Shown piece by piece: positions 34,607-59,975 of a DNA stretch of 64,000 nucleotides. A program made the translations under genes and the position numbers. The stretch covers positions 202 to 64,201 of the forward strand of contig JAZSET010000073.1 in assembly GCA_045531795.1 (NCBI GenBank), written 5' to 3'. Source of the DNA: Eubacteriales bacterium (GTDB lineage Bacteria; Bacillota; Clostridia; Oscillospirales; CAG-272). The first letter of the stretch is position 1. The number at the start of each line of letters is the position of its first letter. Under the pieces are notes generated by a model. That model ran no database searches. It was given only the letters and a program-made list of their open reading frames with translations, and was not told the DNA's origin.

Positions 34607-35797
34607 ATGAGGGTTACAGTAAACAGAAAAATAATGCTTGAACACTTAAAGTCTATGAGCAAGCTTGTTCCGACAAGCAGTGCGATTCCCGAACTTAAAG
34701 GTTTTCTTGTTGAAGCAAATGAAGATGACGGATATTTGTATGTGTCGGCAAACAATATTGAGTCGGCAATACAGAGAAAATTTACTGCCGGGATTGAAGA
34801 AGGCGGAGCTTTTGTTCTCGATGCAAGACTGCTTATGGGCATTCTCTCGAAACTTGCAGGCGATGATGTGCTTTTTGAAATGGAACAGGAAGGAAGTGTG
34901 AAAATAGGCTCGGAGAGTTGTACTTATACAATGAGTACTCTCAGAACAGAGAATTTTCCGCGACCTGATATTCCTTTTCCCGATACCACGATGCACGTTG
35001 CCGGAATGAAACAGTTATATAACAAAACAAGTGATACTGTTCACAAGAATGTCGAGGAAATACTCAACGGTATACACCTTGAGATAACTCCAAACGAAAT
35101 AAGGGCAACAGGCTGCGACGGAAAGTGTATCGGAAGTGCCAGACACGAAATGTCTTGTGGCGGCAGTATGAAAGTAACTCTTTCAAGGGTAGCTTTGTCT
35201 TACCTTGTATCTGCTGCAGGCGATGAAGAGCTTGAAGTAGGTTTGTGCAGAAATTTTGTTGTCTTTATGAAGGAAGGAATGCTTTTCTCGGCTAAAAAAC
35301 TCGCAAGGGAATATGTCGATACAGAAAAGATATTTTCTTCTGTGGGCAGCGAATATGAAGCAAAGGTAGAGTTTAAGGAGTTCAAAGAATGTGTACGCAG
35401 TGCCAAAAACATCGCATCTATGGGACACGAAACTTCGTATATTAAACTTGACTTTGAAGATGAAGGTATAAAGGTCTCTACACAAAACGATGTCGGAGGC
35501 GGAGCAAATACTGCTGAAGCGGTTATGTTCAGCGGCACTTCGGGGCTTAGCTTCTACTATCCTGCGGCTTTGCTTGAAAATGCCTTTAAGACGATTGACG
35601 GTACTATGATCGTAAGGGTTGATAAACGAGGCTATCTTCTCATTTTCAATAAACTTGACAGATACCTTATTACTCCCCTTCCTGCATCGGCTGTTCAAAG
35701 TCAGATCTTAAGGTTTGAAAACCAAAAGAAAATAGCTCGCGGAGAAATCGAAGATAAGACTGTGAAAAAAACGAGAACTTCAAGAAAAGCGGCATAA
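34607..35797 (+). CDS. DNA polymerase III beta sliding-clamp-like protein
   Basis: About 396 aa. The N-terminus 'VTVNRKIMLEHLKSMSKLVPTSSAIPELKGFLVEANEDDGYLYVSANNIESAI' and 'FVLDARLLMGILSKL' follow the DnaN pattern. Confidence 0.6.
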   Translation: MRVTVNRKIMLEHLKSMSKLVPTSSAIPELKGFLVEANEDDGYLYVSANNIESAIQRKFTAGIEEGGAFVLDARLLMGILSKLAGDDVLFEMEQEGSVKIGSESCTYTMSTLRTENFPRPDIPFPDTTMHVAGMKQLYNKTSDTVHKNVEEILNGIHLEITPNEIRATGCDGKCIGSARHEMSCGGSMKVTLSRVALSYLVSAAGDEELEVGLCRNFVVFMKEGMLFSAKKLAREYVDTEKIFSSVGSEYEAKVEFKEFKECVRSAKNIASMGHETSYIKLDFEDEGIKVSTQNDVGGGANTAEAVMFSGTSGLSFYYPAALLENAFKTIDGTMIVRVDKRGYLLIFNKLDRYLITPLPASAVQSQILRFENQKKIARGEIEDKTVKKTRTSRKAA

Positions 35798-35813: not shown

Positions 35814-37196
35814 ATGTTATACACCAAAATGAATCAAATCATTGATGAAGTAAATGCAGAAGTGGCAGAAAGAGAGGAGCTTGTCGAGCTTATCGCCATT
35901 GCCTTGTTATCTAAGAAGAATCTATTTATCTTAGGTGATACAGGTCAGGCTAAAAGCTATGCCATAAATCTTTTCCGTAAGCGTATTGAGGGAGCAAAGC
36001 AATTTGAAAGGCTTATGTCAAAGCAGACCGATGAAGAACAGCTTTTCGGCAGACTTGACCTTTCAAGTCTTATTCCCGGCAATATGCCGCATCAAGAACT
36101 TATGAAAGATGAGTGTTATGCAAAGGCATATACCGAGCTTCAAAAGACTTATGACAACTACAAGAGCACTCACGACACTACAAGCATCAGCCGTGCAGTA
36201 GAACTGCAAAACATGGCAGAACGCTTAAAGAGTATTATCTGTACACTAAGCAGTACATCACCAAAGATGATAACAGACGGAAAGATACCCGACAGCCACA
36301 TTGTGTTTCTCGATGAGATCTTCAAGTCGGGCGACGGTATCTTGAACTCACTGCTTACGGCACTCAATGAAAAGGTATACACAAATGAGGGACAGACGGT
36401 AGATATTCCGGTTGTCTCTTTCTTTTCCGCTTCTAACGAAATACCAAACTTCAACGATTCTGCACAGGCTATCTTAAAGCCCTTGTATGACCGCTTTGAA
36501 TTAAAGGTACTTACCGAGTATGTCAAGGAAAAGGACAATCGTTTGCAGGTTTTGAAGGGTAAACAAGGGTATCTTCCCACACCGTCTAAAACCAGTATCA
36601 CCTTATCTGAACTCGAACAAATGCAAGTCGAAGTACAGGCGGTATTTGTCCCCGACTCAATCAATGAGCTTATGGACAATGTACTGTGCGAACTAAGACG
36701 AGCAGGCGTTCATGTGTCGGACAGAAAGTTTTTCGGATTTACTCCGATCGTTCGTGCAAAGGCATATCTTAACGGAAACACAGAGGTAACATCAAAGGAT
36801 CTGCTTGTTCTCAAAAACTATTTTTGGAACAGACCTGAAGAAATACCCACTGTCGAAAAGGTACTTTGCGACCTTTGTGAAAATCCGCTTGGTGCTGCCA
36901 TTGACAGTCTCATAGCTATGGCAGGAGAAAGTCAAGCAGAGATGAATGAAACAATAGCAGCACTTGATGCAGGGTGCGACGAAAGAGAAAAGATGAAGTC
37001 TTATGTTGTCTTTTCAAAACAGTTGTTTCGCATTTATCTTGAACTTGATAAACTCAAGACAGATGATTTGAGCGATAGCGATTTACAGGAAGTAAACGGC
37101 GGTTTACTTACACTTGAAGAAATGCTCACCGAAGCGGCAAAGTCAGTCGGCACGACCTACATACCGCTCAGTGACCAAAAACGATTAAATTTTTAA
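35814..37196 (+). CDS. MoxR/RavA-like AAA+ ATPase
   Basis: Walker A 'LGDTGQAKS', Walker B 'HIVFLDEIFKS', and 'LNSLLTALNE', typical of MoxR-class AAA+ proteins. Confidence 0.65.
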   Translation: MLYTKMNQIIDEVNAEVAEREELVELIAIALLSKKNLFILGDTGQAKSYAINLFRKRIEGAKQFERLMSKQTDEEQLFGRLDLSSLIPGNMPHQELMKDECYAKAYTELQKTYDNYKSTHDTTSISRAVELQNMAERLKSIICTLSSTSPKMITDGKIPDSHIVFLDEIFKSGDGILNSLLTALNEKVYTNEGQTVDIPVVSFFSASNEIPNFNDSAQAILKPLYDRFELKVLTEYVKEKDNRLQVLKGKQGYLPTPSKTSITLSELEQMQVEVQAVFVPDSINELMDNVLCELRRAGVHVSDRKFFGFTPIVRAKAYLNGNTEVTSKDLLVLKNYFWNRPEEIPTVEKVLCDLCENPLGAAIDSLIAMAGESQAEMNETIAALDAGCDEREKMKSYVVFSKQLFRIYLELDKLKTDDLSDSDLQEVNGGLLTLEEMLTEAAKSVGTTYIPLSDQKRLNF

Positions 37197-37208
37197 AGGA
37201 GAATTATT

Positions 37209-37652
37209 ATGGGATTTAACAAAACTATTTTTATCGGAAGACTTACGAAAGATCCTGAGATTAGAATGTTCGGAGAAGCAAAGGTGGCAAACTTTACACT
37301 TGCAGTTGACAGACGATTCAAGAGCAAGAACGAAGATGCACCCACAGCGGATTTTATCCCCGTTACTGTATGGCGAGGAACTGCTGATTTTGTAGAAAAG
37401 TATTTTACAAAGGGTAAGCAGGTTGTTGCTTGCGGCTGGCTTGAAACCTATTCCTACGAAAAAGACGGTCAAAGAATTCACTCCTTCCGTATCAATGCGG
37501 ATGAGGTTGGATTTGCCGACACCGCAAGGTCCGATAACGGCGGCGGACAGAATAACGGAGGAACAGGTGCTTTTTCCGGTCAGATGAGTCCCGGCGATTT
37601 CAGCGGCTTTGATCCTACAGATTTTAGCAATGACGATGACCTTCCGTTTTAA
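37209..37652 (+). CDS. ssb: Single-stranded DNA-binding protein
   Basis: 'NKTIFIGRLTKDPEIR', an OB fold, a Gly-rich linker, and the acidic tail 'DDDLPF'. Confidence 0.9.
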   Translation: MGFNKTIFIGRLTKDPEIRMFGEAKVANFTLAVDRRFKSKNEDAPTADFIPVTVWRGTADFVEKYFTKGKQVVACGWLETYSYEKDGQRIHSFRINADEVGFADTARSDNGGGQNNGGTGAFSGQMSPGDFSGFDPTDFSNDDDLPF

Positions 37653-37714
37653 TTAAGAATCAGAGGTTGTGCGGGTAAGGATAACACCTTATCTGCACAC
37701 CTTCAAGGAGTAAT

Positions 37715-39289
37715 ATGGGACAATATAAATTCATAGAGGATGTTCTTTCGGGACTATCTTCTTTAACACAAAAAACGACAGGAGAAAAAACAGACAGAGT
37801 TCTTAAATCCACTCGCATTGAACAGGCAATCTACGAAGACCTTTCTTCCGATGCAGATGGACTTGCAAGGTACGCATCAGAAGGCAGTGAAAAGCTTAAA
37901 TCCTTTTCCAGCCTTGTCAACGATGTATTTCAATCCGTTTACGGACTCAGAGCAAGATACACAGACGATAGCGACCTTTCAGCCCTTTCAAAGAGTCTTA
38001 ACAAGACTATCTTGGGAGATCTTATGAGTGATGAAAGTTATGCTGCTGTCAAAAGTGTATGCGAAGGCAAAGAGCTTCCCGCAATCGGCGCCACTGAAGA
38101 ATTTACCGAAAAGTTAGTCGAAAATCTCGATGATGTTTTAAGTAAAACTACAGGCGGCAAAGGTAAGGCAGATGCCCTTGACAAAATGCAGGATGATGAG
38201 ACCGCTTTACAGGAAAAATTACAAGAACTTCTAAAGAAAAGAGAAACCACTCCGCAAAGCGGAATGGAAGCACTGAACGAAAGAATCGTAAATACGGCTA
38301 ACCGCATTGTTTCAAAGCGAGAACAAATGCAGATGTTTGAAAACATCATACAACAGAGTCTCGGAAAGAGCAGCGGTGAGCTTAAAAGGATTGTTTCTTC
38401 TTGTGCCGATTCTGCACTTGAGAGAGCTGAAGGAATAAGCAATATGCTTATGGCTTGGGGTGATGGGGACGCCGAAATGAAAAAGACTCCGGTAAACACC
38501 GAAATCTTAAAGAAAATGGCATCCTCTCACAAACTAAGGCTTATAGCGAAATTCTTGGGAAGATACAAGGAGAAACTTCGTTCCAAACGCCTTGCGGGAT
38601 TTACCTATGGCAGAGGTGAAAAGTATGATATCGAATACGGAAACAACATTAACCGTGCTTTGACATCAGAACTTGCCACTCTCGCATCCCCCGATCTTGT
38701 ACCTCTTTTCTTGAGGAAGTACCAAAACAAATCATTAAAGCAGTACCGAAAGCGTGAGCCTGAGTACAAAGGCGGTGGAGATATTATCGTCTGCCTTGAT
38801 GAATCTTCATCTACCTTTGGCGAAAACAATGCTTACGGTATGGCACTTGCAATGGTGCTTTATGAGATATGCAGAGAAAATCACGCAAATTTCGCACTTG
38901 TACATTTTGCAAAGAATACAAAGGTGGACTATTTTCCTAAAGATGAAAAGGTATCATCCGGGAAGGTGCTTGACTGTGCTGAAACCTTTCTCGGCGGCGG
39001 TACCAACTTTGAAAATCCTCTGCGAGAAGTATTTGCTCTGACGACAAACGGAAAGCTTGATAAGCCCGACATTGTATTTGTCACAGACGGCGAATGCGAT
39101 GTCTCGGATGAATTCTTGAAACTGTTTGACGAATTTAAGGCAGATACAGGTGTAAAGCTCACAGGCATACTTCTCGATAAGGGAAGCTGCTTTGAATTTT
39201 CTTTACAAAAATTTGCAGATGTGATTTTCAGAACAAGTGAACTTGAGGAGGATACAATCATTGAACGAAGCATTGAACAATTTTCGTAG
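37715..39289 (+). CDS. von Willebrand factor A (VWA) domain protein, likely partner of the MoxR ATPase
   Basis: C-terminal VWA domain with MIDAS 'DIIVCLDESSS', 'GGGTNF' and 'IVFVTDGE'. Confidence 0.7.
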   Translation: MGQYKFIEDVLSGLSSLTQKTTGEKTDRVLKSTRIEQAIYEDLSSDADGLARYASEGSEKLKSFSSLVNDVFQSVYGLRARYTDDSDLSALSKSLNKTILGDLMSDESYAAVKSVCEGKELPAIGATEEFTEKLVENLDDVLSKTTGGKGKADALDKMQDDETALQEKLQELLKKRETTPQSGMEALNERIVNTANRIVSKREQMQMFENIIQQSLGKSSGELKRIVSSCADSALERAEGISNMLMAWGDGDAEMKKTPVNTEILKKMASSHKLRLIAKFLGRYKEKLRSKRLAGFTYGRGEKYDIEYGNNINRALTSELATLASPDLVPLFLRKYQNKSLKQYRKREPEYKGGGDIIVCLDESSSTFGENNAYGMALAMVLYEICRENHANFALVHFAKNTKVDYFPKDEKVSSGKVLDCAETFLGGGTNFENPLREVFALTTNGKLDKPDIVFVTDGECDVSDEFLKLFDEFKADTGVKLTGILLDKGSCFEFSLQKFADVIFRTSELEEDTIIERSIEQFS

Positions 39290-39851: not shown

Positions 39852-40052
39852 ATGGATAAGAAAAACAAGAAGCCAAGATGTATGCTTATAGGGAAAGACG
39901 GTAATATATTTGTCCTTTTGGCTTTGGCTTCCCGCACCCTGAAAGAAAATGGATTAAATCAAGAAGCTGATGAAATGTACAAGCGGGCAACATCATCAAG
40001 CAGTTATGATGAGGCTCTGTGCATTATCGGCGAATATGTAGTTATATGTTAA
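39852..40052 (+). CDS. Hypothetical small protein (66 aa)
   Basis: ORF with an aaggag RBS. No motif recognised. Confidence 0.45.
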   Translation: MDKKNKKPRCMLIGKDGNIFVLLALASRTLKENGLNQEADEMYKRATSSSSYDEALCIIGEYVVIC

Positions 40053-40064
40053 TGGAGGTAAACT

Positions 40065-40262
40065 ATGTTTTATAAGGTATTATTTTTACTTGCTTGCTAC
40101 AACATGTTTGTAAGTGTAAGAAGTTTTATTAAGGAATACGTTGTTATCGAAAATGGCGAACTCGTTCAAATTCCGAAGAAAGCATACATTTCTATTGGTG
40201 CTACTGTACTGTTTCATATAATGGTACTTTCGGTTTGCACATTGCCGTCATTTTTGTTTTGA
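40065..40262 (+). CDS. Hypothetical small membrane protein (65 aa)
   Basis: Two hydrophobic segments. RBS ggagg upstream. Confidence 0.4.
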   Translation: MFYKVLFLLACYNMFVSVRSFIKEYVVIENGELVQIPKKAYISIGATVLFHIMVLSVCTLPSFLF

Positions 40263-40284
40263 TTATTTGAAGGAGATATAAGTT

Positions 40285-40530
40285 ATGAAATTATTTGGCA
40301 AATCGGATAACAAAAAGCCGCAAAAACAGGTTAAATATGTATCCGGCGAACTCGGTATTGTCGAAAAAGGAAAAAGAGGTATGATATATTCTACAGATGG
40401 CAAAATCATATTTACCTCTGAAATCGTTGATCTCAAGAACAAGACCGAGCACGGAATAGATATTGAAACTCTCAATTCTGTCTACAAAGTCTCTTACCCT
40501 CAAGGCTGCAAGGCACAAAGAGTAAGCTGA
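40285..40530 (+). CDS. Hypothetical small protein (81 aa)
   Basis: ORF with RBS 'gaaggag'. No motif recognised. Confidence 0.45.
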   Translation: MKLFGKSDNKKPQKQVKYVSGELGIVEKGKRGMIYSTDGKIIFTSEIVDLKNKTEHGIDIETLNSVYKVSYPQGCKAQRVS

Positions 40531-40560
40531 CTTATTTTTGGAACACTTAAATAAAAATAA

Positions 40561-40605
40561 ATCCGGTGTGTTGCCTTGATATTAAGGTACACATCGGATT
40601 TTTGT
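40561..40605 (+). terminator. Intrinsic terminator
   Basis: atccggtgtg/cacatcggat stem followed by T5. Confidence 0.7.
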
Positions 40606-40722
40606 TAATGATTATTAAATTTGAGAATCTTGATTTCAAAGTGGTTTTATGTTAAAATGAATCAATACAAATATTATTTGTTTGAAATATATTTATATGC
40701 TATTAGATGGAAGGTAAATTTA

Positions 40723-41637
40723 ATGAACGATCAATTTGCTGACGAATGTGTAAAAGTCATACAATCGGGAAATATAAATGAGATTAACCAATATTTAGAA
40801 CATTTTTTTGAAAGCATTGATATTGATAAACTAATTAAAAAAATTAAAAGATTTCGTTATTTAAATATTGCTTCTTTAAAAGATGATGAATTGAAATATG
40901 AAATAAAAAATATTCTTATGCATAATAACATATGGAGCTTAATAAATACATATTCTGTTTTTAAGACGGGAAGATATTTTTATAGGGTTCGTTTGTTGAA
41001 AAATTTTGATTTTCCAAATGAAAATTTACAACAACTTTCTGATTTTTGGAATCCTCCTATTAAATTTGTAGATAAATATGGAAGAATAAACGCACCGCAC
41101 GAATCGCTCCTATATACATCTTTTAATCCTCAAACTGCAATATATGAAAAAAAGGCATTTAATTTGCCTATAGCATTATTTGCATATAAAAACAAAAGAG
41201 ATATAAAAGTTTCTTGGATTGGAGCACCAACAAACTATAAGCACCATAACTTTACAAGTCCAAAAGCGATATGTGTTCATGAGATTATAAATAATTTTTT
41301 AATTGATGAATTTACACAAGAAGTTCCTGTAGGAAAAGAAAGCATGTACAGGATCACAGAACACATTGCTAAGGAATATTTTTATGATCCAAATGGAAGC
41401 GGATGGAGATATCCCTCTATTAAGAAAGAAGCATCTGATAATATCTGTTTTTCAACAAACAAGTTAACAGATGATATTGAGTTGGTGGGGGCAATTATTG
41501 GAACGATGTATAAGAATGGAGGATTTGACTTCAAATATTTTATTAGGGGTACAGAAATTGAGAAGAATTATCTATATACAGATAAAGATAATGTTGAATT
41601 CTTCAAGCGGTTGTTTCCAGAGTTTAAGAAAATTTAA
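40723..41637 (+). CDS. RES-domain protein (NAD+-targeting toxin family) with ~110-aa N-terminal extension
   Basis: 'YFYRVR', 'YGRINAPHESLLYTSFNPQTAIYEK' (R...E core) and 'GWRYPSIK' (Ser) match the R-E-S signature. The gene is markedly AT-rich. The ATG at 40723 follows 'ggaagg'. Confidence 0.6.
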   Translation: MNDQFADECVKVIQSGNINEINQYLEHFFESIDIDKLIKKIKRFRYLNIASLKDDELKYEIKNILMHNNIWSLINTYSVFKTGRYFYRVRLLKNFDFPNENLQQLSDFWNPPIKFVDKYGRINAPHESLLYTSFNPQTAIYEKKAFNLPIALFAYKNKRDIKVSWIGAPTNYKHHNFTSPKAICVHEIINNFLIDEFTQEVPVGKESMYRITEHIAKEYFYDPNGSGWRYPSIKKEASDNICFSTNKLTDDIELVGAIIGTMYKNGGFDFKYFIRGTEIEKNYLYTDKDNVEFFKRLFPEFKKI

Positions 41638-41693
41638 ACAAAGTATAGTGCAAAATATAAATAAAACCGTATATTAACATTTTTCCCTTTTTC

Positions 41694-41920
41694 AGCAAAA
41701 CCTCTTGAAACACCAAATATACTATGCTAAAATAACAATGTAAAAATGGTAAGCAGTTAAAATGGTAAGCAGTTGAACAGGTATGAAAGTACTATCCCGT
41801 GGGATAGCCATGCTCATACCTGTTTTTTCATTTTTACAGGACAACAAAATATTTTAAGGAAACAAACACACAAATCTAAGTCTTTGATGGCTTTATTTGT
41901 GTGTTTTTTTGTTTTCAAAA
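41694..41920 (+). promoter_or_regulatory. Promoter-leader-double-terminator module, copy B
   Basis: The first ~145 nt are identical to copy A apart from 3 substitutions, at a constant offset of 10481 nt. -35 at 41705-10, -10 at 41728-33, terminator 1 at 41776-41828, terminator 2 at 41864-41910. Confidence 0.6.
41864..41910 (+). terminator. Intrinsic terminator 2 of leader module B
   Basis: Perfect 12-bp stem aaacacacaaat/atttgtgtgttt followed by a T-run. Confidence 0.75.
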
Positions 41921-41940
41921 TTCAAGGAGGTAAACAAAAA

Positions 41941-42393
41941 ATGAAAAACCACAGGTTGAACGAAAGGCAAAGCAGATTTGCCCAAACACATTACGGTGTT
42001 CTTGAGGATTTCTTGCGAAAGCGAGGTCTTCCATTTGAAGAATACTACGATGCTGTTGTGTTCGAGTATCTTGAAGCAGTAAAACGCTATGATGAGATCC
42101 TTGCATTAAGACGAGAAACATTCGAGTCTGTTGCGGAAAGAATCATGCTTATGGCACTTCGAGAACACTTTGAACAGTCTGACAGACTGCAGGAACAAAA
42201 GGATTTGTTTGAAGCCGTGTATCCCTACTCTCACAGATATGGAGATATGGTACCGGACAAAACAGTTAATGTTTGCGAACAGGTATGCCGGAGATACGCC
42301 GATACTCCAAAAAAGAAGTATAGGCTCTCATATATACGAACACCCAAAAACGTAAGTTGCATTGTCGTCAAGGGGGTGAGCGTTATGAGGTAA
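41941..42393 (+). CDS. Sigma-70-family-like (region 2-like) small transcription factor
   Basis: aaggagg RBS before the ATG at 41941. 'LEDFLRKRGLPFEEYYDAVVFEYLEAVKRYDE' resembles sigma region 2 of mobile-element sigma-like proteins. The assignment is tentative. Confidence 0.4.
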   Translation: MKNHRLNERQSRFAQTHYGVLEDFLRKRGLPFEEYYDAVVFEYLEAVKRYDEILALRRETFESVAERIMLMALREHFEQSDRLQEQKDLFEAVYPYSHRYGDMVPDKTVNVCEQVCRRYADTPKKKYRLSYIRTPKNVSCIVVKGVSVMR

Positions 42394-42451: not shown

Positions 42452-43780
42452 ATGAGTGAAGAAAAAACAAACGGATTTTTAGCAAACGACATCGATCTTG
42501 GCAGTGACACAGCTTTTTCGGACTTTCCCGCTTTCGACGGTGCAGATTTTGGAGATTTATTCGAGGACAAATCTTCTCACACCGAAGTAAACACGGATAG
42601 CGTTGTGTCGGATACAGCAGCCACAGAAGAAACGAATGTCACAGTACAGGGGGATGGACAGAATGATGAACACACAGGCGACAAAACAGACGCTTCTGAA
42701 GCAGAAGAAACAAAACCGAACAGCGGTACTTCAAAATCAGAAGAACAAGATCCTTTTGAAGCAGCACTGGCACAGGCAACCGCAAAAGAGGCAGAAAAGA
42801 CAAAGAGTAGTTTGATCTCCAAACTTCCTATCTTTCAATATGCCAACGCAAAAGAAGAAATTGCCGACACTTCAAAAACCTTTGATGAGCTTCGTAATGA
42901 AAAGGCAGAGGATTTTCCCGAACTTGACGACGGAACTTCTGTAACTTGGAAAATGACATACGGAACGATAAGCAAGTCCGTATCCAATCCCAAGAAAACT
43001 ACCATTGCGAGCTTGAAAACTCAGATAGAAGGTTCAAAGGAATTTTTGGAGTATCTTAAAAAAGCAAAGGGCGAGGTTGAATGTAAAGTTACTCCCTCTG
43101 TTACCGCAAAGAAAAAGGGACAAATGTCATCATATAAAGGTGTGTTTGTTACTCTTGAAGATGCGGCAACAAGCGGGAAAGCTATTGCATACGTGCCGTC
43201 GGATGACGGCAAGGTGTATGAGGTGCGTCCTAACAGAATCGGCACATTTATCACTCCTACCGAAAAAGTATCAATGTTAAGAAAGGTAAGGGCCGGGTTT
43301 ATCCCGGCTCTGCCGAAAATCCCTTATTCGATTTTGTCAGAGATTTTATCTTTCTTTAAGGCATATATCACAGAAAACGGCGAGCTTGAAGCCCTTGCAT
43401 TTATCTATTGGTCTGTGGAAGAAGAAAAATACCGTGTGTATGTTCCGAAGCAGACTGTATCTAAGGCAAGCGTGGATTCGAGTCTTCCCGATATTGATGA
43501 GGATAAATTCATACTCGTTATGGAAATACATTCTCACAATACTATGACGGCAAGATTCTCCCCGACCGATGACAGAGATGAAAAAGCCACAAGGCTTTAC
43601 ACAGTTGTCGGACGAATGGATAAGGTCTTTCCCGACATTACCACACGCGCATCTGTCGGAGGCAAATATATAGAGGTTGATCCCGAAACGGTCTTTGAAC
43701 GATTTGAAGGTGCTTTTCCCGAGTCTTGGAAAGAAGCAGTTGAAGCTGTAACTCCCAAAAAGAAGGAGGTTATAGAATGA
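42452..43780 (+). CDS. Protein with acidic disordered N-terminus and C-terminal JAB/MPN (JAMM) metallopeptidase domain
   Basis: Exact JAMM motif 'EIHSHNTMTARFSPTDD' (E...HxHx7SxxD). Confidence 0.75.
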   Translation: MSEEKTNGFLANDIDLGSDTAFSDFPAFDGADFGDLFEDKSSHTEVNTDSVVSDTAATEETNVTVQGDGQNDEHTGDKTDASEAEETKPNSGTSKSEEQDPFEAALAQATAKEAEKTKSSLISKLPIFQYANAKEEIADTSKTFDELRNEKAEDFPELDDGTSVTWKMTYGTISKSVSNPKKTTIASLKTQIEGSKEFLEYLKKAKGEVECKVTPSVTAKKKGQMSSYKGVFVTLEDAATSGKAIAYVPSDDGKVYEVRPNRIGTFITPTEKVSMLRKVRAGFIPALPKIPYSILSEILSFFKAYITENGELEALAFIYWSVEEEKYRVYVPKQTVSKASVDSSLPDIDEDKFILVMEIHSHNTMTARFSPTDDRDEKATRLYTVVGRMDKVFPDITTRASVGGKYIEVDPETVFERFEGAFPESWKEAVEAVTPKKKEVIE

Positions 43781-44499
43781 AGCTTGCCATAGACAGACCG
43801 GTAAAGATATTGATAATCGGTGCCGGAGGAACGGGCGGTCATGTTATACCGCATCTGTATAGAATTGCCTACTCCATAAACAGAGCGTGCAAGGTGATTA
43901 TCGCTGACGGTGATATAGTGGAAAGAAAAAACCTTGTCAGACAGAATTTTGCCGAATGTGATATAGGCGAAAACAAAGCAAAGGTTATGGCTGAGAGATA
44001 TTCCGAGGTGTTTGGTATCGAAACCGAATATATCCCGGAATATATCGAAAGCGAAGATGAACTCTACGAGCTTCTTCATGTACCAAATAATTATTATGGC
44101 CGACCGAAGCCCATAAGCATTCTCATCGGTGCCGTTGACAATAACCGTTCAAGAGTGATGTGTAATAATGTTTTCAATAAGCTTGACGACATTATCTACA
44201 TTGATTCGGGTAACGGTGAGTTTACGGGACAGGTGGTGTGCGGTGCAAAGATGGGCGGCAAGGTTATCAGTAAGCCGATAGCGAGGCTTTACCCGGATAT
44301 CCTTACCGATACCGAAAAGTTTCCTTCCGAACTTTCTTGTGCGGAAAGAAATGTGTCGGCACCCCAGACTATTGCCGCAAATGTATTTGCAGGTACGGCA
44401 GTGGCTACCATGCTTTACTATTTGCTCATTGAAGGAAATCTTGAGAGTACAAGGGTAACCTTTTCTTCAAAGAAATTAACTATCAGAAAGGCAGCATAA
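43777..44499 (+). CDS. ThiF/MoeB/E1-like adenylyltransferase
   Basis: 'ILIIGAGGTGG' (Rossmann P-loop), 'DGDIVERKNLVRQ', 'GENKAKV' and 'AVDNNRSR' are canonical E1-like adenylation-domain motifs. The start overlaps the JAB gene stop. Confidence 0.8.
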   Translation: MKLAIDRPVKILIIGAGGTGGHVIPHLYRIAYSINRACKVIIADGDIVERKNLVRQNFAECDIGENKAKVMAERYSEVFGIETEYIPEYIESEDELYELLHVPNNYYGRPKPISILIGAVDNNRSRVMCNNVFNKLDDIIYIDSGNGEFTGQVVCGAKMGGKVISKPIARLYPDILTDTEKFPSELSCAERNVSAPQTIAANVFAGTAVATMLYYLLIEGNLESTRVTFSSKKLTIRKAA

Positions 44500-44503
44500 G
44501 GAT

Positions 44504-44689
44504 ATGGTAAATGACATTGTGCTAACACAAACAAAAAAGGTAGTTATGACTATGGATAAAACCGTAACTGTCGTAACAGAGAAACTTGAAACCGTAGATA
44601 AGTACGGCAGACGAAAACTCCAAAACTATGAGAGAACCGAAAGTGTTGAAAATCACGATCTCGGACTTGATTTATGGAGGGCTGCTTAA
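44504..44689 (+). CDS. Small protein (61 aa) ending in Ala-Ala, adjacent to the E1-like gene (candidate modifier)
   Basis: ORF between the E1-like and methyltransferase genes, with stop/start overlap TAATG. The sequence is predominantly beta-strand-like by eye. C-terminus '...LDLWRAA'. Confidence 0.4.
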   Translation: MVNDIVLTQTKKVVMTMDKTVTVVTEKLETVDKYGRRKLQNYERTESVENHDLGLDLWRAA

Positions 44690-46053
44690 TGTCGGAAAGC
44701 TATTATGCTCTTGAACGATTTGCGGCAGCAGACAGAAGCCTTGTAAGCATTATCGAAGCAATGCCCATAAAACGCAGGGCTATTGATATTTACAAGGAAA
44801 AGAACAACATACAACGAGCAAAAGACACCTTCTCTGAGCTTGAAAGCGTCAAGAATAGACTTCTTGATACTGTCAGAGAACTCGGTCTTTTGTTCTCGGA
44901 GTGTGATTTGCCCGAATGCTCTGCTTATGCAAATAAACTTTACGGTGCCGTAAAAGCTTTCAAACTTATGACACACGACTATACCAAGCTTATCTCGGCT
45001 ATACAAGCTATAAAAGACAAAATTCCGAAAAGTGAAGCGGCTACCGCAAGAACTATCGGACACCTTATGAATAACGTAAAAATGGGATACTATCCTACCG
45101 ATATTTCTCATGTCAAGAGAATTAAAAACGCTTTGAAGTTTCCCGAAACAAGTGTAAATATATTTGATCCTTGCTGCGGTTGCGGTCTTGCACTTGAAGC
45201 TCTCGCTTTGGGTACTGACACAGTTACCTACGGAACTGAAATAGATGAGGCACGAGGTAAGGAAGCCGAAAGCCGTCTTGACAGAGTGGGATTCGGAAGC
45301 TTCTTTCATTCAAGAATAAGCTCAGACGCTTTTCAAGCCCTGTTTCTTAATCCACCGTACTTAAATGTTATGGGTGAAGGCGGAGTCAAGGCAAGAAGCG
45401 AGAAAAGATTTCTTGTGGAAAGTATGGGACACTTGATGAAAGACGGCGTACTTATGTACATTATCCCGTATTACAGATTGACATACGATATTTGCCGTGT
45501 GCTTTGCGATAATTTTGGGGATATATCTCTTTACAGATTCCTTGATGATGAGTTTTCCAAGTTTCATCAGATCGTTGTCTTTGGTGTACGAAAGCCAAAG
45601 GACGACGGCTCGGAACTTGCGGAAAAACTGTCGCAATACGCAATGTGTCCCGAAAAGATACCGATGATTGATACTTTGGGAACAGGAATATATTCTATTC
45701 CCGAAGCAAAGAAGCCTATCGAGATATTCAAAGGAGCAAATTTCAATCTTGGCGAACTTCGGCGTCAGCTTGCTGCATCCAAAAGCATAAATATGATTTT
45801 TGAGAAAAGCAAGATAGATGCTATGGAAAAACGCCCGCTTTTGCCCCTTAATATCGGTCAGGTAGGTCTCATCGGAGGAAGCGGACTCATAAACGGCTAT
45901 GTTGACTGTGATACACCCCACGTTATCAAAGGCAGAGTCATAAAAGAAATAAAGCGGAGAGAAAATGATACGGAAGGCACCCTGACAGAAACGAGAGTCA
46001 ACAGGATGCTTTTTAACATTTTAACGCCTGAAGGTGTAAAACATCTGGCGTAG
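44689..46053 (+). CDS. SAM-dependent DNA methyltransferase (NPPY class)
   Basis: Motif I 'IFDPCCGCGLALEAL', motif IV 'FLNPPY'. GGAGGG upstream of the ATG at 44689. Confidence 0.75.
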   Translation: MSESYYALERFAAADRSLVSIIEAMPIKRRAIDIYKEKNNIQRAKDTFSELESVKNRLLDTVRELGLLFSECDLPECSAYANKLYGAVKAFKLMTHDYTKLISAIQAIKDKIPKSEAATARTIGHLMNNVKMGYYPTDISHVKRIKNALKFPETSVNIFDPCCGCGLALEALALGTDTVTYGTEIDEARGKEAESRLDRVGFGSFFHSRISSDAFQALFLNPPYLNVMGEGGVKARSEKRFLVESMGHLMKDGVLMYIIPYYRLTYDICRVLCDNFGDISLYRFLDDEFSKFHQIVVFGVRKPKDDGSELAEKLSQYAMCPEKIPMIDTLGTGIYSIPEAKKPIEIFKGANFNLGELRRQLAASKSINMIFEKSKIDAMEKRPLLPLNIGQVGLIGGSGLINGYVDCDTPHVIKGRVIKEIKRRENDTEGTLTETRVNRMLFNILTPEGVKHLA

Positions 46054-46064
46054 AAAGGATTTAT

Positions 46065-46373
46065 ATGGAATACGAAATTGACCTAAAGAAGCTTGTTTCG
46101 TGCTTAAAGAAAGATAAGTCACAATCTGTTCCCGAGTATATCGAAACAGACGGTGAAAGATATATCTTTGAAAATATCATTCAAAAGTTTGCATCAAATT
46201 CCGATGTTACAATGGATGAAATTGACCTTGATGCATTTGATGAAGATGATATCACAACACTTATTGATTATAAATCGGACTTTATTGAGGATACGCTATG
46301 TGCGGTATATAAGTTGGTTAAAACATTTGGTGATATGCCGCCGGCAATCGTAAGGGCGAGACAATTCTTTTAG
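46065..46373 (+). CDS. Hypothetical acidic protein (102 aa)
   Basis: ORF with an RBS. Asp/Glu-rich segment 'DVTMDEIDLDAFDEDDITTLIDYKSDFIEDT'. Confidence 0.45.
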   Translation: MEYEIDLKKLVSCLKKDKSQSVPEYIETDGERYIFENIIQKFASNSDVTMDEIDLDAFDEDDITTLIDYKSDFIEDTLCAVYKLVKTFGDMPPAIVRARQFF

Positions 46374-46382
46374 GAGGACAAA

Positions 46383-46976
46383 ATGAAGTTAAAGGAAGAA
46401 GAATATTCAAGACAACTGCTTATGATAGTCTGTCTTTTTAAGGTGTTTCATGATGCAGGTATTACCATTCTCGAAAGATGTGATGGTGCAACACCTCTTC
46501 ATATGGACTATTACTATGAATTTGCGTTAGATGCTATTCAAAATGCCGCACCGATTGTGTACAGCGATGAAAATCTCTACACGAAACACGGATTCTCATA
46601 TGACGATGATGAAGTAAATCTTTATGCATATTCGTCAAAGGAATTTAAGGAGTATTACCGTATCGCTCGAAAACTACACCGTATCGAAGGCTGTAAGACA
46701 AAGGAAAACCCGTATATCAAAGAGTTTGAAAGAAAAATTGAAAGATTACGAGGTTTTGACTCATATAACTTTGATTACTTTATTGGCGGTAAAAGAAAAG
46801 GTGCAAGACTTGAGGCTTTGTGGGGATATGAATTTGATTGTGAGATTCCCATGTGCTTGTGGATCGTGCGTGTAATGTCTTTTGCAAAAGCGGAACTTCC
46901 AAAAATTCAAAAGAAGTACCGAGAAGCACGCCGTAAAAAACGTTCGGGAGGTAAGCATCATGCGATACAACGATGA
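46383..46976 (+). CDS. Hypothetical protein (197 aa)
   Basis: ORF with an aggagg RBS. No motif recognised. Confidence 0.45.
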   Translation: MKLKEEEYSRQLLMIVCLFKVFHDAGITILERCDGATPLHMDYYYEFALDAIQNAAPIVYSDENLYTKHGFSYDDDEVNLYAYSSKEFKEYYRIARKLHRIEGCKTKENPYIKEFERKIERLRGFDSYNFDYFIGGKRKGARLEALWGYEFDCEIPMCLWIVRVMSFAKAELPKIQKKYREARRKKRSGGKHHAIQR

Positions 46977-47616
46977 AATGGTAATACACATTACAAGTGA
47001 AGGCAAAATTTTGGTTGAGGACATAGAAAACGGTGTCAAGGCATTCAAAACGGTAGAGCCGGAGGTATTCATCAACTGTGTGAAAGATTCTATACGCACA
47101 AGTATGGTTTCAAGCGGCATCTTGCCAAGCGGCGTATTTTATTACGGCGCAGGAGATGGCGGTAAACAAAAGGTATGTGTAGAATTTCCTGCAAGAAGAT
47201 GTGATGTTATGTACAAGAAGACCGAGTATAAGGACTTTCCTATACCGAGACTTGTTTTCGGTTTTGTCCTTGACGGTGATCGTATTACAAATGTCAATCT
47301 TGGTGTTGTAGATGATGGTAACCTTACTCCCAAAAGTAAGATGTACATATATCCGTTTTCCAATGTAAGCGGATATAGACTGTGTTGCGGTTCAAATAAA
47401 TTGCCGAACATTAAGTCTTTGCATCAGCTAACAGGAGTAATGTACTTTATCATGTCAATGCCAAATAACAACGACCACTACCGTTCGGAACGCACAAAAC
47501 TCGAAACAGAACTCAGAACAGTTTTTGAGCTTCTCAAGGATAAAGATCCTAAATACTATTATACCGATGTTCTGAAAGAAAGCGGAAAAACTCTAAAAGA
47601 TTTTGTGGATAATTAA
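46960..47616 (+). CDS. E2/UBC-like protein candidate (PRTRC-type cassette member)
   Basis: 'IYPFSNVSGYRLCCGSNKLP' parallels the E2 'HPN(x)nG.IC' active-site arrangement. GGGAGG lies upstream of the ATG at 46960. The gene sits in the same cluster as the JAB and E1-like genes. Confidence 0.4.
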   Translation: MRYNDEMVIHITSEGKILVEDIENGVKAFKTVEPEVFINCVKDSIRTSMVSSGILPSGVFYYGAGDGGKQKVCVEFPARRCDVMYKKTEYKDFPIPRLVFGFVLDGDRITNVNLGVVDDGNLTPKSKMYIYPFSNVSGYRLCCGSNKLPNIKSLHQLTGVMYFIMSMPNNNDHYRSERTKLETELRTVFELLKDKDPKYYYTDVLKESGKTLKDFVDN

Positions 47617-48449: not shown

Positions 48450-50210
48450 ATGATAAAAATAAACAGATTTAATATTCTCAGTGTAAGAATGGAAGGTTTT
48501 AAAAAATTCAAGGATGCATACACAATGGATTTCGACAAACTTACTTGCATTTCGGGCAGTAACGGTGAGGGTAAAACCTCAATTGCCGATGCGATTGCCT
48601 TTGCTTTTTGCGGTACTCCTTTTTGGGGCGAAAAAAGCTGTGACAGGCTTCTTAATTCGGAAAGCAAAGAAATGTCCGTAAGTATTCAGATAGTCGATGA
48701 AAACGGCGAAGTACATACACTTTCACGCACCAAATACGGCAACAATACAACTATTATCTTTGATACACTTCAGGTACGACAAACAGATCTTACCACAATG
48801 TTTGCAGAAAAGGATGTGTTCCTTTCTCTCATCAATCCCATATATTTCATTGAAAAGATTGCAGAGGACGGCAGAGAGTTTCTTCAAAAGCTCGTTCCGC
48901 AGCCCGACCAAAGTGAAATACTTGCACAGATGAGTGAAAGCACAAGGGCACTTCTTGAAAGCGAGAGCTTGCTCGATCCCGAATACTTTATTAAGAAACG
49001 CCGAGAAGAACTCAAGGCACTTGAAGATGCGGACGCATACCTTGCAGGTCAAAAAGATTTGCTTAAGGCTCAGTTTGATGATACTTCTTCTAAGATGGAC
49101 GATGTTCTGAAAAAAGGCGATGAGATAGTAAGGAAAAAGCAATCACTTGAAGAAAAACAGTTTGCCGGCATTGATGTGGAAAAACTGAGAGCAAGGCAGG
49201 CTGCCATTGCAGAAAGTCTTTCGGGGGAAGTGCGTACACGCCTTGCCGCAAAGCAGGCTGAAGCACAAAACAGACAGTACATTTCCAAATTCACACCTGA
49301 AATTGCAGAAATTGAAGCAGAAATTCGTGCTCTATCCGAAAGGTGTAATCGCCTTGTAACACAAATGAAAGGTATAAAGGTTGGCGATACTTGTCCCACC
49401 TGCCATACCACTGTTACTGAGGCAAATTATAAAAGCATTATTGCCGGAATGAAAGCGGACTATGACAAGGCTTGTTCGGACGGTAAAGCAGCCATTGCCG
49501 CAAGAGCAGAACTCTTGGCACTCGATAAGAAGAGTAAAGAAAAGTTTGAGGAATTTCGTCAGGCTGATCTTAAAAGAGTGGAAGCAGAACGCTCTGAGCT
49601 TGGCACTGCCGATGTATCCGAAATCGCACTTATTGAGGATAAGCTCAAATTCGGAAATCTTACACCGGAGGAATACGACGAACTTTGTGCTCTTACAACT
49701 CAGGCAGAAAGTTATCTTAAGGAAGTTGAGGTATTATGTGCCGCAAACGATATTCCCGGTAAAATCGAGAAAATCGACAGCGACCTTGCTCAGAATAAGA
49801 CAAAGAAAATAGATCTTCTGAGTCTCATTCATGCAGTAACCGAGTATATGGCAAAGAGAGCAGAGATAACACTTCAAAGTCTTCAGATGAACAGAGCATC
49901 CATTAAGCTTTTCGATGTAGTGAAAACTACGGGAGAACTTAAAAATGTGTTCCGTTTTACCTATGACGGCAAGGATTACCGATGGCTTTCTACATCAGAG
50001 CGAATAAAGGCAGGTCTTGAAGTGTCTGCACTTCTCGAAAGACTTACAGGGCTTATATATCCCAAGTACATAGACAATGCAGAGTGTATCACCACAAAGC
50101 TTGACCGCATTAACGGACAGGCAATTTTGGCATATGCGAGAAAGACACCTCTTGTGGCTACATATCCGTTAAGACAAGTGGCAGCTCAGAGAGAGGCGGT
50201 CGCAGCATGA
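48450..50210 (+). CDS. Rad50/SbcC-like SMC-type ATPase with CxxC hook
   Basis: Walker A 'ISGSNGEGKTS', a long coiled coil, a central 'CPTCH', a C-terminal 'LSTSERIKAGL' signature-like motif and 'YIDNAE'. Confidence 0.65.
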   Translation: MIKINRFNILSVRMEGFKKFKDAYTMDFDKLTCISGSNGEGKTSIADAIAFAFCGTPFWGEKSCDRLLNSESKEMSVSIQIVDENGEVHTLSRTKYGNNTTIIFDTLQVRQTDLTTMFAEKDVFLSLINPIYFIEKIAEDGREFLQKLVPQPDQSEILAQMSESTRALLESESLLDPEYFIKKRREELKALEDADAYLAGQKDLLKAQFDDTSSKMDDVLKKGDEIVRKKQSLEEKQFAGIDVEKLRARQAAIAESLSGEVRTRLAAKQAEAQNRQYISKFTPEIAEIEAEIRALSERCNRLVTQMKGIKVGDTCPTCHTTVTEANYKSIIAGMKADYDKACSDGKAAIAARAELLALDKKSKEKFEEFRQADLKRVEAERSELGTADVSEIALIEDKLKFGNLTPEEYDELCALTTQAESYLKEVEVLCAANDIPGKIEKIDSDLAQNKTKKIDLLSLIHAVTEYMAKRAEITLQSLQMNRASIKLFDVVKTTGELKNVFRFTYDGKDYRWLSTSERIKAGLEVSALLERLTGLIYPKYIDNAECITTKLDRINGQAILAYARKTPLVATYPLRQVAAQREAVAA

Positions 50211-54563: not shown

Positions 54564-54929
54564 ATGGGAACGGCTGAACGAAGGCACGAAATAATGCGAG
54601 TTTTATGTCGGAGAAGATACGAAACAATCAAAAATTTAGCGAATGAGTTCGGCGTTTCAGAAAGAACCCTTGCGCGAGATATTGAGATGCTAAGCCTAAC
54701 TGAACCTATTTATACAAAGCAAGGAAAACACTGCGGCGGCGTGTACGTGATGGATGGATTTTCCATGACACGAATGTATATGAAAGACACAGAACTTGCT
54801 GTACTTCAAAAGCTTTCAAACAGTGTTTATGATGATGCTGTTTGTCGGCTTGATACGGCTGAACGCTTAATACTTAAAAACATAATCTCGCAGTACACAA
54901 AACCTACAACAAAAAAAGGAGAATTGTAA
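54564..54929 (+). CDS. HTH transcriptional regulator (DeoR/HTH_11-like N-terminal domain)
   Basis: 'RRHEIMRVLCRRRYETIKNLANEFGVSERTLARDIEML'. aaggagg RBS upstream. Confidence 0.65.
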   Translation: MGTAERRHEIMRVLCRRRYETIKNLANEFGVSERTLARDIEMLSLTEPIYTKQGKHCGGVYVMDGFSMTRMYMKDTELAVLQKLSNSVYDDAVCRLDTAERLILKNIISQYTKPTTKKGEL

Positions 54930-55996: not shown

Positions 55997-56000
55997 TATA

Positions 56001-56636: not shown

Positions 56637-56878
56637 ATATTGAAAAAAAGGTAAAAAACATTTTATCTGAACTCAGCGGCGAAGAGGGAATTTCTAATGA
56701 AACAACTCTTCAAAACGATTTGGCTCTTGACAGTCTTTCGATGGTAACTCTACTTGTTGAAATCGAGGATGTTTTTGAAATTCAGCTTGACGAGGCGGAT
56801 ATGAACCCCTTTGATTTCGAGACTGTACAAAGCGTTATAGATATGGTTGCAAAATATGTAGGTGATGAATATGAATAA
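56633..56878 (+). CDS. Acyl/peptidyl carrier protein
   Basis: 81 aa. 'LALDSLSMVTLLVEIED' contains the DSL phosphopantetheine-attachment motif. Confidence 0.75.
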   Translation: MNIEKKVKNILSELSGEEGISNETTLQNDLALDSLSMVTLLVEIEDVFEIQLDEADMNPFDFETVQSVIDMVAKYVGDEYE

Positions 56879-59235: not shown

Positions 59236-59239
59236 GTTT

Positions 59240-59782: not shown

Positions 59783-59864
59783 TTAAGAACGTGAGAAGGA
59801 TATTTGATTATCAGATAGATTCGATTGAGTATGAAAAATTAAAATATTTTTCAATAACCATTTC

Positions 59865-59891
59865 AACCATGACAGCAGTTGTCAGGTTTAA
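59865..59891. promoter_or_regulatory. 27-bp palindromic site, copy 2 (candidate operator)
   Basis: Identical to 54504-54530. Lies upstream of the DUF1906-like/RHS genes. Confidence 0.55.
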
Positions 59892-59975
59892 GGATTAAAA
59901 TACAAATGCAGCTGTAGAAGATTGGGACGCCAGTCGAAAACAAAACATAAAATTCAAAGAAAGAAGGAAAACAAA

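Follow-up and report, generated by a model that had tools for sequence, protein, structure and literature searches.

The window analysed here is a stretch of 64,000 nucleotides from an Eubacteriales bacterium (assembly GCA_045531795.1, contig JAZSET010000073.1, positions 202 to 64,201), which corresponds to a conjugative element of a gut Clostridia host. Between positions 42452 and 47616 it carries a cassette of seven closely packed open reading frames (ORFs). This cassette is probably a divergent ubiquitin-like conjugation operon of the class known as 6D or PRTRC, lying in the replication/recombination operon of the element, in which a ubiquitin-like (Ubl) modifier would be released by a JAB peptidase, activated by an E1-like enzyme and passed through an E2-like protein to targets connected with replication or establishment of the element. 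Every gene of the window is on the + strand, and those of the cassette overlap or are closely spaced throughout, as in one tightly coupled operon. The JAB, E1-like, small ORF, methyltransferase and E2-like features described in an earlier sequence-only reading are all found in the cassette.

In order to place the cassette among its relatives, 80 genome loci retrieved with the E2 profile (hereafter, related loci) were compared. The order JAB-ThiF-[variable]-DUF6094-[p102]-[p197]-E2-Rad52-SMC-primase-DUF6744, in which p102 and p197 are proteins of 102 and 197 amino acids (aa), is repeated in ~60 of the 80, nearly all of them from Clostridia. This repetition confirms that the cassette is an arrangement far beyond chance.

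The candidate modifier and its enzymes

The first gene of the cassette (42452-43780) encodes a protein of 442 aa, with 803 homologues, in which an acidic disordered N-terminus is followed by a predicted ubiquitin-like domain, then by a linker, an alpha+beta domain and finally a JAMM peptidase. Residues 1 to ~100 are variable and acidic, strong conservation begins at about residue 100, and the JAB domain takes up only the last ~140 residues, with a Pfam Prok-JAB score of 27.3 bits (cutoff 25) and a match to PRTRC_A over residues 300-408 (E=1.8e-13). The exact JAMM motif HSHNTMTARFSPTDD that had been placed at the C-terminus of this protein is indeed present (H360-S-H362...S370...D373, 43529-43570), but it occupies residues 360-374, in the C-terminal quarter and not at the very end. 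Together with Glu313 it completes the signature E...HxH(x7)S(x2)D, and every one of these residues is invariant in two homologue alignments. Arg259 and Trp320, which are also invariant and lie N-terminal to the JAB catalytic motifs, may be the conserved Arg and Trp of the N-terminal alpha+beta domain of 6D JAB proteins.

The likely modifier of the system corresponds to residues ~124-223 of this same protein (42821-43120), and not to the 61-aa protein that had been put forward from the sequence. Residues 124-223 are conserved as a block in 31 diverse homologues, up to an invariant Lys222-Gly223; behind it, a linker whose length varies leads to a conserved YKG. When the profile of the window-family domain was compared by hhalign with five annotated PRTRC_C proteins alone, a probability of 92.2% was obtained (E=5.7e-7), which rose to 95.6% (E=1.2e-8) when a Bacillus protein was added to PRTRC_C, over ~41 columns in both cases; against three Firmicute standalone Ubls the probability was 79.9% (E=1.4e-5). 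The PRTRC_C proteins annotated on five plasmids of proteobacteria and Desulfuromonadales end in GDKG, GQKG, DSNG or GTKA, and the Xanthomonas one extends past TKG and would need processing. In a B. licheniformis megaplasmid, a 129-aa protein encoded directly after E2, with a disordered N-terminus and with Prok_Ub (E=0.028) and PRTRC_C (E=0.063) as its only Pfam/NCBIfam matches, ends in ...IPVVTGAKKG*, its window counterpart being ...KVTPSVTAKKKG223. Similarly, plasmids of Thermoanaerobacterium and C. botulinum present the order p102-like, p197-like, E2, a standalone tail-plus-domain protein and ThiF, and these standalone Ubl-like proteins end in ...QKKG* or ...YAKG*. The 442-aa protein is thus predicted to be an Ubl-JAB fusion, with Gly223 as the predicted JAB processing site and C-terminus of the mature Ubl.

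The Ubl domain forms 214 representative clusters (50% identity) among 1.84 billion proteins, mostly within proteins of 400-550 aa, and one 182-aa protein of uncertain completeness among the matches ends exactly in ...RAKTKG; a further homologue search with a diverse profile added little diversity. PRTRC_C was not matched in an hmmscan of the window domain, and a search of PDB sequences with the Ubl-JAB profile gave no significant match.

Some results weigh against the assignment of this domain. The hhalign match is limited to its first ~43 residues (predicted b1-b2-a1-b3), a ~40-residue insertion, largely predicted helix, separating them from the final strand and the KG tail; Pfam scans run on the single sequences of 27 members of the domain family gave no Prok_Ub match; and the AlphaFold2 (AF2) model of the full 442-aa protein, obtained with 14 homologues, has a predicted local distance difference test (pLDDT) value of 44.6 and is unusable. 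The low-confidence order of secondary structure in that model is b-b-a-b-b-a-a-b for residues 127-215. Since the model is unusable, the beta-grasp fold of the Ubl is deduced from sequence profiles only.

The disordered tail that precedes the Ubl (residues 1-123, window 42452-42820) has features of its own. A conserved (L/I)DLGS, [DN]PF[AE] repeats and an N-terminal NxLF/NPLNDFL are seen when the window tail is compared with those of loci L072, L056, L060, L048, L070, L047 and L063 and with positions 12600-12989 of L002. A subclade carries QxSLF directly before the Ubl, the QLSLF of L072 being a canonical beta-clamp-binding motif, and a Bacillus standalone Ubl carries QLALF.

The second gene (43777-44499), whose start overlaps the JAB stop codon (ATGA at 43777-43780), encodes a ThiF-type E1-like adenylyltransferase of 240 aa with a single adenylation domain. 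It matches Pfam ThiF with E=1.9e-17 (63.7 bits versus a cutoff of 28.1), and PRTRC_ThiF is by far its best NCBIfam match (E=9.9e-30), with 103.6 bits versus the TIGR03736 trusted cutoff of 144.75. The coupling to JAB and the motifs GAGGTGG, DGDIVERKNLVRQ and DNNRSR, all of them pointed out in the sequence-only reading, are present, as are the nucleotide and Arg-finger motifs of E1 enzymes. Across 59 relatives, GxGGxGG, DGD..E.NL.RQ, AVDN, Cys164 and Cys188 are conserved, both cysteines being kept in at least 98% of them; Cys188 lies within a 'SCAE' motif, for which the P. aeruginosa PRTRC ThiF counterpart is 'SCSAAE'. The closest solved relative by sequence is MccB (E=7e-5), over the nucleotide-binding region only, and the PADLOC E1-E2 (Cap2) models match ThiF over residues 9-77 only, that is, over the generic nucleotide-binding region.

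The last gene of the cassette (46960-47616) encodes the E2-like protein, for which the ATG at 46960 gives 218 aa, the same length as that of almost all its homologues. It contains the segment YPFSNVSGYRLCCG, which had been compared with the E2 active site, and it matches Pfam Prok-E2_D (PF14460) with E=3e-5 and PRTRC_B with E=8.6e-4 (18.7 bits versus a cutoff of 131.45). Many of its 571 homologues carry a precomputed PF14460 match, and a Bacillus homologue reaches 35.5 bits for Prok-E2_D. Among 49 diverse homologues, P132, N135, C142, G144, N146, N169 and N170 are invariant, D172 is present in all 49 (and in >90% of the full set of 120) and H155 in 48. Cys142 (codon 47383-47385) is the candidate catalytic residue, accompanied by Asn135 and His155. 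The residue preceding the conserved Pro is Tyr and not the His of HPN, so that in this family the Cys is conserved, the HPN His is missing and a His located C-terminal to the Cys is conserved as well. The E2s of class 6D were described in 2006 in the same terms, without the HPN histidine but with a histidine conserved beyond the cysteine (Iyer, Burroughs & Aravind 2006, Genome Biol 7:R60). There is a loose resemblance between the spacing N135-x7-C142-x25-PNNxD and the eukaryotic HPN...C...PNPxDP, although hhalign is unsupportive.

A structural model of the E2-like protein, obtained by AF2 with 120 homologues, is confident (pLDDT 86.3), and its order of secondary structure (helix, beta-meander, Cys-bearing loop, helices) is compatible with a ubiquitin-conjugating (UBC)-like core, without being a proof of it. 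The fold check suggested for 46960-47616 gave a good model but not a UBC fold from PDB: the best Foldseek match to PDB had an E value of 0.36, with no UBC/E2 among the top 50. This result goes against an E2 identity, as do the hhalign comparison of the family with three eukaryotic E2s (probability 0.2%), the Pfam score of 24.3 bits, just below the gathering cutoff of 25, and the existence of some related loci that hold the E2-like gene although no ThiF, JAB or recognisable Ubl is near it, which is odd for an obligate E1-E2 relay. In BFVD, Foldseek matched the model to uncharacterised phage proteins only, and a PDB sequence search with the E2 profile gave no significant match. Because both Foldseek and hhalign are null, the E2/UBC identity rests on Pfam/TIGRFAM membership and motif spacing. 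Pfam and the 2006 analysis assign the Prok-E2_D family to the E2 superfamily (Iyer, Burroughs & Aravind 2006, Genome Biol 7:R60).

Relation to known systems and proposed role

Class 6D comprises a Ubl, a JAB, an E1, an E2 and a rapidly diverging alpha-helical protein, and in 2006 it was already noted in Gram-positive bacteria (B. cereus and B. thuringiensis) as well as in cyanobacteria, proteobacteria and Bacteroides (Iyer, Burroughs & Aravind 2006, Genome Biol 7:R60). It corresponds to the PRTRC cassette of TIGRFAM and to the Pfam families Prok-E2_D, Prok_Ub and Prok-JAB. Its set of components is found in the window, with Prok-JAB and ThiF above their Pfam cutoffs and the Ubl by hhalign, and we infer that p197 is the counterpart of the alpha-helical protein. 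As in 6D/PRTRC, a predicted Ubl with a Gly end is found, the JAB protein has an additional domain on its N-terminal side, the ThiF E1 is short and consists of a single domain, the E2-like protein has a His after the Cys in place of the HPN histidine, the small partners diverge rapidly, and the site, on a plasmid or conjugative element, is beside replication and partition genes. Unlike them, the window Ubl is fused to JAB and bears an acidic disordered tail of ~120 residues; the gene order is JAB-E1...E2 instead of the ParB-E-C-F-B-A-ThiF of PRTRC; a DUF6094 methyltransferase and, in some lineages, a small AA-ending ORF are included in the cassette; and a PRTRC-type ParB is not adjacent. The only ParB of the window (1982-2911) is ~40 kb upstream and is an ordinary ParB, which scores 93.4 versus a cutoff of 58.45 with the generic ParB model and 48.4 versus one of 278.6 with PRTRC_parB.

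The PRTRC-type JAB, E1 and E2 cassette that had been recognised on this Gram-positive conjugative element is supported by the profile searches, in which PRTRC_A (50.5 bits versus a cutoff of 101.8), PRTRC_ThiF and PRTRC_B are the best NCBIfam matches. However, all PRTRC models (TIGR03734-03742) stay below their trusted cutoffs, which argues against a strict assignment, and no cassette gene matched PRTRC_E or PRTRC_F in the NCBIfam scan. Taking into account these scores and the lack of adjacent PRTRC ParB, E and F, the window cassette has to be regarded as a divergent relative of PRTRC and not as its equivalog.

Proteobacterial PRTRC cassettes adjoin ParB and, like the window cassette, dnaN, sigma-like, helicase and SSB (single-stranded DNA-binding protein) genes, so that the association with replication functions must be old. 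Closer relatives are the cassettes of Firmicute megaplasmids (B. licheniformis, B. cereus group, Paenibacillus, Thermoanaerobacterium and C. botulinum plasmids), in which p102-like, p197-like and E2 genes are adjacent in the same order, beside ThiF, and the Ubl has a disordered N-terminal tail and a KG end. Their ThiF proteins are 31-37% identical to that of the window and their E2 proteins 25-31%. In contrast to the window, the Ubl is there a separate gene, located between E2 and ThiF in Thermoanaerobacterium/C. botulinum and directly after E2 in B. licheniformis, and neither an internal DUF6094 methyltransferase nor the pattern of Ala-Ala ends described below is found.

The cassette is not one of the bacterial conjugation systems that have been characterised, namely type II CBASS (the antiphage signalling system based on cyclic oligonucleotides), Bil or Bub. 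In Bil (BilABCD, class 6C), JAB pre-processes the Ubl to expose a C-terminal Gly, which is transferred via E1 and E2 cysteines. The window shares with it the set of Ubl, E2, JAB and E1, but the E2 families differ (CEHH in Bil, Prok-E2_D here), the PADLOC scan of the JAB and E2 proteins matched no model, and Bil is located in defence islands whereas the window cassette is in a replication module. In type I Bub (class 6E), the Ubl of the BubAB fusion is cleaved by the JAB-containing BubCD, which recalls the predicted release of the window Ubl from its fusion by a JAB peptidase; however, the Bub fusions join the Ubl with E2 and the peptidase with E1, and Ser/Tyr oxyester intermediates and a DUF6527 protease are used, whereas the window cysteines are conserved and a Pfam scan of the cassette found no DUF6527. 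Type II CBASS (class 6B) follows the same E1, E2 and JAB logic, and its Cap2 adenylates the C-terminal Ala of a protein that is not a Ubl (the E. cloacae CdnD ends in ...GRFA); Cap2 is nevertheless an E1-E2 fusion, while in the window E1 and E2 are encoded separately, and a CD-NTase is missing from the window cassette. Class 6D has been known since 2006, and what sets the window cassette apart is the Ubl-JAB fusion, the inserted methyltransferase and the place within the replication module of a Clostridia conjugative element.

In Bil and Bub, Ubls have been shown to be pre-processed by JAB and to pass from E1 to E2, and all the steps proposed here are drawn from homology with these two systems. 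The JAB domain would cut the fusion after Gly223, giving rise to a free Ubl with a C-terminal Lys-Gly. Gly223 would then be adenylated by an E1 dimer, which would probably hold the thioester on Cys188, and the Ubl would pass to Cys142 of the E2-like protein, to be finally transferred to lysines of targets. The JAB domain could also reverse the modification.

As for the role of this process, the cassette is always accompanied by SSB, a DnaN-like clamp, a Rad52-type annealing protein, an SbcC/SMC-like ATPase and a primase. Given the constancy of these replication neighbours, which extends to PRTRC, the most likely function is the control, after transfer, of the replication/establishment machinery of the element itself or of the host proteins that meet it. 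A more specific proposal, to which only a slim chance is given, is that the Ubl is a replisome-directed tag tethered by its tail motifs (in relatives, QLSLF/QxSLF and acidic DPF repeats) to the DnaN-like clamp or to SSB partners, that E1 and E2 modify clamp-associated replication and recombination proteins in analogy to PCNA ubiquitylation/SUMOylation, and that the Ala-Ala ends of these proteins act as ClpXP degrons, the whole serving to time a replication burst after entry.

The interest of this operon lies in that 6D/PRTRC appears to be the last of the bioinformatic classes of 2006 without a published function or a detectable solved structure. Classes 6B, 6C and 6E are those now known as CBASS II, Bil and Bub, and for 6A there is an anti-phage model in NCBIfam. 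In agreement with the sequence-only reading, in which the function of such cassettes in conjugative elements was said not to be established by experiment, searches of the paper library found no experimental study of the PRTRC/6D class, and recent publications still refer to uncharacterised operon families. Unlike those defence systems, 6D travels with replication and partition genes of plasmids and integrative and conjugative elements, and its study could bring to light a use of ubiquitin-like tagging outside immunity, in horizontal gene transfer. In gut metagenomes the Clostridia family is abundant, as reflected by hundreds of homologues and the 214 clusters of the Ubl domain. Furthermore, the analysis makes a clear prediction of the modifier and of its processing site, Gly223, and defines a compact set (Ubl-JAB, E1, p102, p197 and E2) for biochemistry. 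The candidate modifier is in this way corrected, and the Ala-Ala phenomenon, which is strong in its own right, is set apart from the E1/E2 machinery.

Ala-Ala termini and alternative explanations

The third gene (44504-44689) is the 61-aa ORF that follows ThiF and ends in WRAA. Its existence agrees with the sequence-only reading, but its proposed function as a modifier is not supported: it has no family match in Pfam or NCBIfam scans, its hhalign probability against the PRTRC_C and window Ubl-domain profiles is <1%, and it is missing from many intact cassettes, ThiF directly abutting the methyltransferase in ~8 loci (e.g., L005/L006). Its orthologues, found in 11 related loci, have 60-67 aa and end in GRAA, RRAA, RRIA or RGVA, and they differ from the window copy mostly at third codon positions. 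This ORF is best understood as a real, clade-restricted accessory gene and not as the modifier. In ~13 more distant loci, ThiF is followed instead by an ORF of 72-87 aa ending in RRAA, KGAA or RKVA, and then by a well-conserved 141-aa ORF (MGRGYWLPP...INSQH.K.VG; end K[VA]VG), often with a ~360-aa ORF behind it. This pair lies between ThiF and the methyltransferase in L026, L040, L046-L048, L058, L063, L070, L076-L079, L082 and L084. Homology between the 60-67-aa and the 72-87-aa ORFs is not demonstrable (hhalign probability 1.3%).

The other observation of the sequence-only reading, that many neighbouring proteins end in Ala-Ala, is amply supported, since 8 of the 60 window genes do so versus 0.22 expected (P=7.5e-11). 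All eight are in the 31.5-54 kb module (window 31540-54032) and end at 35797, 44499, 44689, 48435, 50210, 51295, 52668 and 54032; four further module proteins end in x-Ala, as against none of the 25 genes called upstream of the module. In the related loci, the Ala-Ala end is kept in 71 of 72 Rad52 proteins, 40/43 DUF6744, 18/23 sigma-like, 40/59 SMC-like (most others being AS or AG), 17/27 p197, 27/59 ThiF and 27/51 primase proteins, and it is found in none of 86 E2, 33 p102 and 66 methyltransferase proteins (the latter ending in LA, LG, LT or LS) and in only 2 of 57 Ubl-JAB proteins. A nucleotide-level cause was rejected, as neither the Ala codons nor the stop codons are constant. It is chiefly through a C-terminal Ala-Ala that ClpXP recognises ssrA tags, as well as the RqcH Ala-tails of Firmicutes. 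Four loci that have the E2-like gene and lack ThiF, JAB and methyltransferase within 10 kb retain the Ala-Ala ends and, because they persist where E1 and JAB are absent, these ends are more likely a degron than an E1 substrate. A built-in degron is the simplest and more likely reading, a type IV secretion signal or substrates of E1 being possible ones.

Three other explanations of the cassette have to be considered. According to one of them, E1 and E2 act in a Cap2-like manner on the Ala-Ala ends of the 61-aa protein and of the replication/recombination proteins of the element, conjugating these to targets, and JAB reverses the reaction. The enrichment in Ala-Ala and its retention in the Rad52 and DUF6744 orthologues speak in its favour, as do the presence of a small ORF ending in [GR]RAA or KGAA after ThiF in ~24 loci, the precedent of an E1 that adenylates a C-terminal Ala in E. 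cloacae CdnD, and the ...TKA end of one canonical PRTRC_C. Nevertheless, the cassette possesses its own Gly-terminated Ubl, the small ORF is missing from many intact cassettes, and Ala-Ala ends persist where ThiF, JAB and methyltransferase are absent within 10 kb. They are also seen on a variety of unrelated proteins, E1 among them, whereas the E2-like protein never has them and Ubl-JAB hardly ever does. In addition, the Bacillus and Thermobacillus plasmid cassettes show no Ala-Ala enrichment around them. The known ClpXP role of such ends explains the pattern more simply, and conjugation through Ala-Ala is considered quite improbable. Even less credit, as a highly improbable reading, is given to the absence of protein conjugation, with E1 and Ubl forming a sulfur-carrier pair like ThiS/MoaD or a peptide-modifying pair like MccB, and the E2-like protein being a non-catalytic partner or one of unrelated fold. 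This would agree with MccB as the closest solved relative of E1, with a confident E2 model devoid of UBC matches in PDB and with E2-like genes that can occur without E1. It accounts poorly, however, for an invariant Cys within a PxxN...C...H...PNNxD pattern that is loosely like that of E2 enzymes (hhalign being null), for a JAB peptidase fused to a Ubl with a KG junction, for the place given to the family in the E2 superfamily, and for the lack of sulfurtransferase, rhodanese or cofactor-biosynthesis genes nearby.

The third explanation, which is unlikely although it is given more weight than the former two, is that of an anti-defence or counter-defence module acting at establishment and not in self-regulation, which would tag host immune proteins with the Ubl or, through JAB, strip host conjugates such as those of CBASS cGAS or Bil. 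The neighbours of the cassette (SSB, orphan methyltransferase, annealing protein and primase) are establishment functions, CBASS II and Bil work in the phage-host conflict, Bub is predicted to do likewise from its genomic context, and relatives are found in phage-like contigs and among uncharacterised phage proteins. Moreover, a cassette on a C. botulinum plasmid lies ~5 kb from a CBASS operon. Against this, the JAB and E2 proteins correspond to no PADLOC model and ThiF resembles Cap2 only over its generic nucleotide-binding region, while the tight and ancient linkage to DnaN, ParB, SSB and sigma-like genes, in Firmicutes and in Proteobacteria, points to the DNA transactions of the element itself, as proposed in the 6D/PRTRC conjugation reading that is preferred here.

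Accessory genes and element context

Between the E1 and the E2 sub-module, the Clostridia family carries a DUF6094 methyltransferase (44689-46053; Pfam DUF6094 E=6.9e-105) with an NPPY motif, which is present in 66 related loci. Its likely true start is the ATG at 44689, which overlaps the stop codon of the 61-aa ORF (TAATG at 44687-44691) and has a GGAGG 8 nt upstream. It also matches the PADLOC mad2 model (E=6.4e-12), the PHROG family 'DNA methyltransferase' and, weakly, PrmC. The SbcC/SMC-like ATPase encoded downstream of the cassette (48450-50210) matches, in turn, the mad3, AriA and LmuB models. The mad2/mad3-type matches may represent a generic similarity to components of methylation-associated defence.

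The two genes preceding E2 encode p102 (46065-46373) and p197 (46383-46976), both without family match, the latter directly upstream of E2 and overlapping its start. The p102 protein, a conserved partner upstream of E2, is found in 33 related loci, with an aromatic or aliphatic C-terminus and never AA. In the plasmids of Thermoanaerobacterium and C. botulinum, the second gene upstream of E2 encodes a protein of similar size ending in ...DEDFF or ...DEDEIY, its equivalence to p102 being by position. In the case of p197, it is recognisable in 27 related loci and has positional equivalents in Firmicute plasmids.

Carriers of the conserved order include Oscillospiraceae, Lachnospiraceae, Clostridium leptum DSM 753, Acetatifactor muris and others, as well as metagenome contigs. 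Some copies of the cassette are within megabase-scale chromosomal contigs and a 168-kb plasmid of Subdoligranulum carries a related one; a blastn search of plasmids with the cassette gave no match. The CBASS operon close to the cassette of C. botulinum plasmid pFWSKR40E1 (L094) encodes a DncV-like cyclase and a cGAMP-activated phospholipase, and cas3 is also near (L094 coordinates 11098-12672 and 1-1476).

Four contigs from Ruminococcaceae/Oscillospiraceae metagenome-assembled genomes (L062, L065, L071 and L073), with no JAB, ThiF or methyltransferase within 10 kb, keep the sigma-like, p102-like, p197-like, E2, Rad52, SMC, primase and DUF6744 genes, and in place of the missing ones encode a 188-aa protein with a CGDWGE motif that ends in KKAG. 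This protein was contemplated as a standalone Ubl and rejected on reading its sequence, no profile comparison having been made. In L073, the p102-like/p197-like/E2 unit is tandemly duplicated.

The element as a whole encodes, in this order, ParA/ParB, a sortase, a 2233-aa SpaA/thioester-domain adhesin, a TrbL-like protein, a VirB4-like ATPase, a coupling protein and a RepA_N initiator, followed by the 31.5-54 kb module. In this module, the cassette is preceded by a SNF2 helicase, a divergent DnaN-like clamp (34607-35797), MoxR, SSB, a vWA protein and a sigma-like protein, and it is followed by the Rad52-type annealing protein, the SbcC/SMC-like ATPase, a DnaG/DUF3854 primase and DUF6744. The genes at 35814-39289 encode a bpMoxR-domain MoxR-type AAA+ ATPase, an SSB with an acidic tip (...DDDLPF) and a ViaA-like vWA protein, a trio that is kept in L003, L047 and L082. 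Just upstream of the sigma-like gene, a low-GC island (40001-42000, GC 0.30 versus ~0.41 elsewhere) harbours a 338-aa ORF (40621-41637) with no Pfam match, and is probably a later insertion. Downstream of the module, cargo-like genes (54564-60794) encode an NTP_transf_5 nucleotidyltransferase, a thymidylate-kinase-like protein, an AMP-binding (adenylate-forming) enzyme, a CYTH domain protein and a Rv2525c-like glycoside hydrolase. At the other end of the window, genes for tRNA-Lys(CTT) (322-397) and tRNA-Asn(GTT) (903-978), which could mark an integration site or be borne by the element, are located directly upstream of parA/parB (1099-2911).

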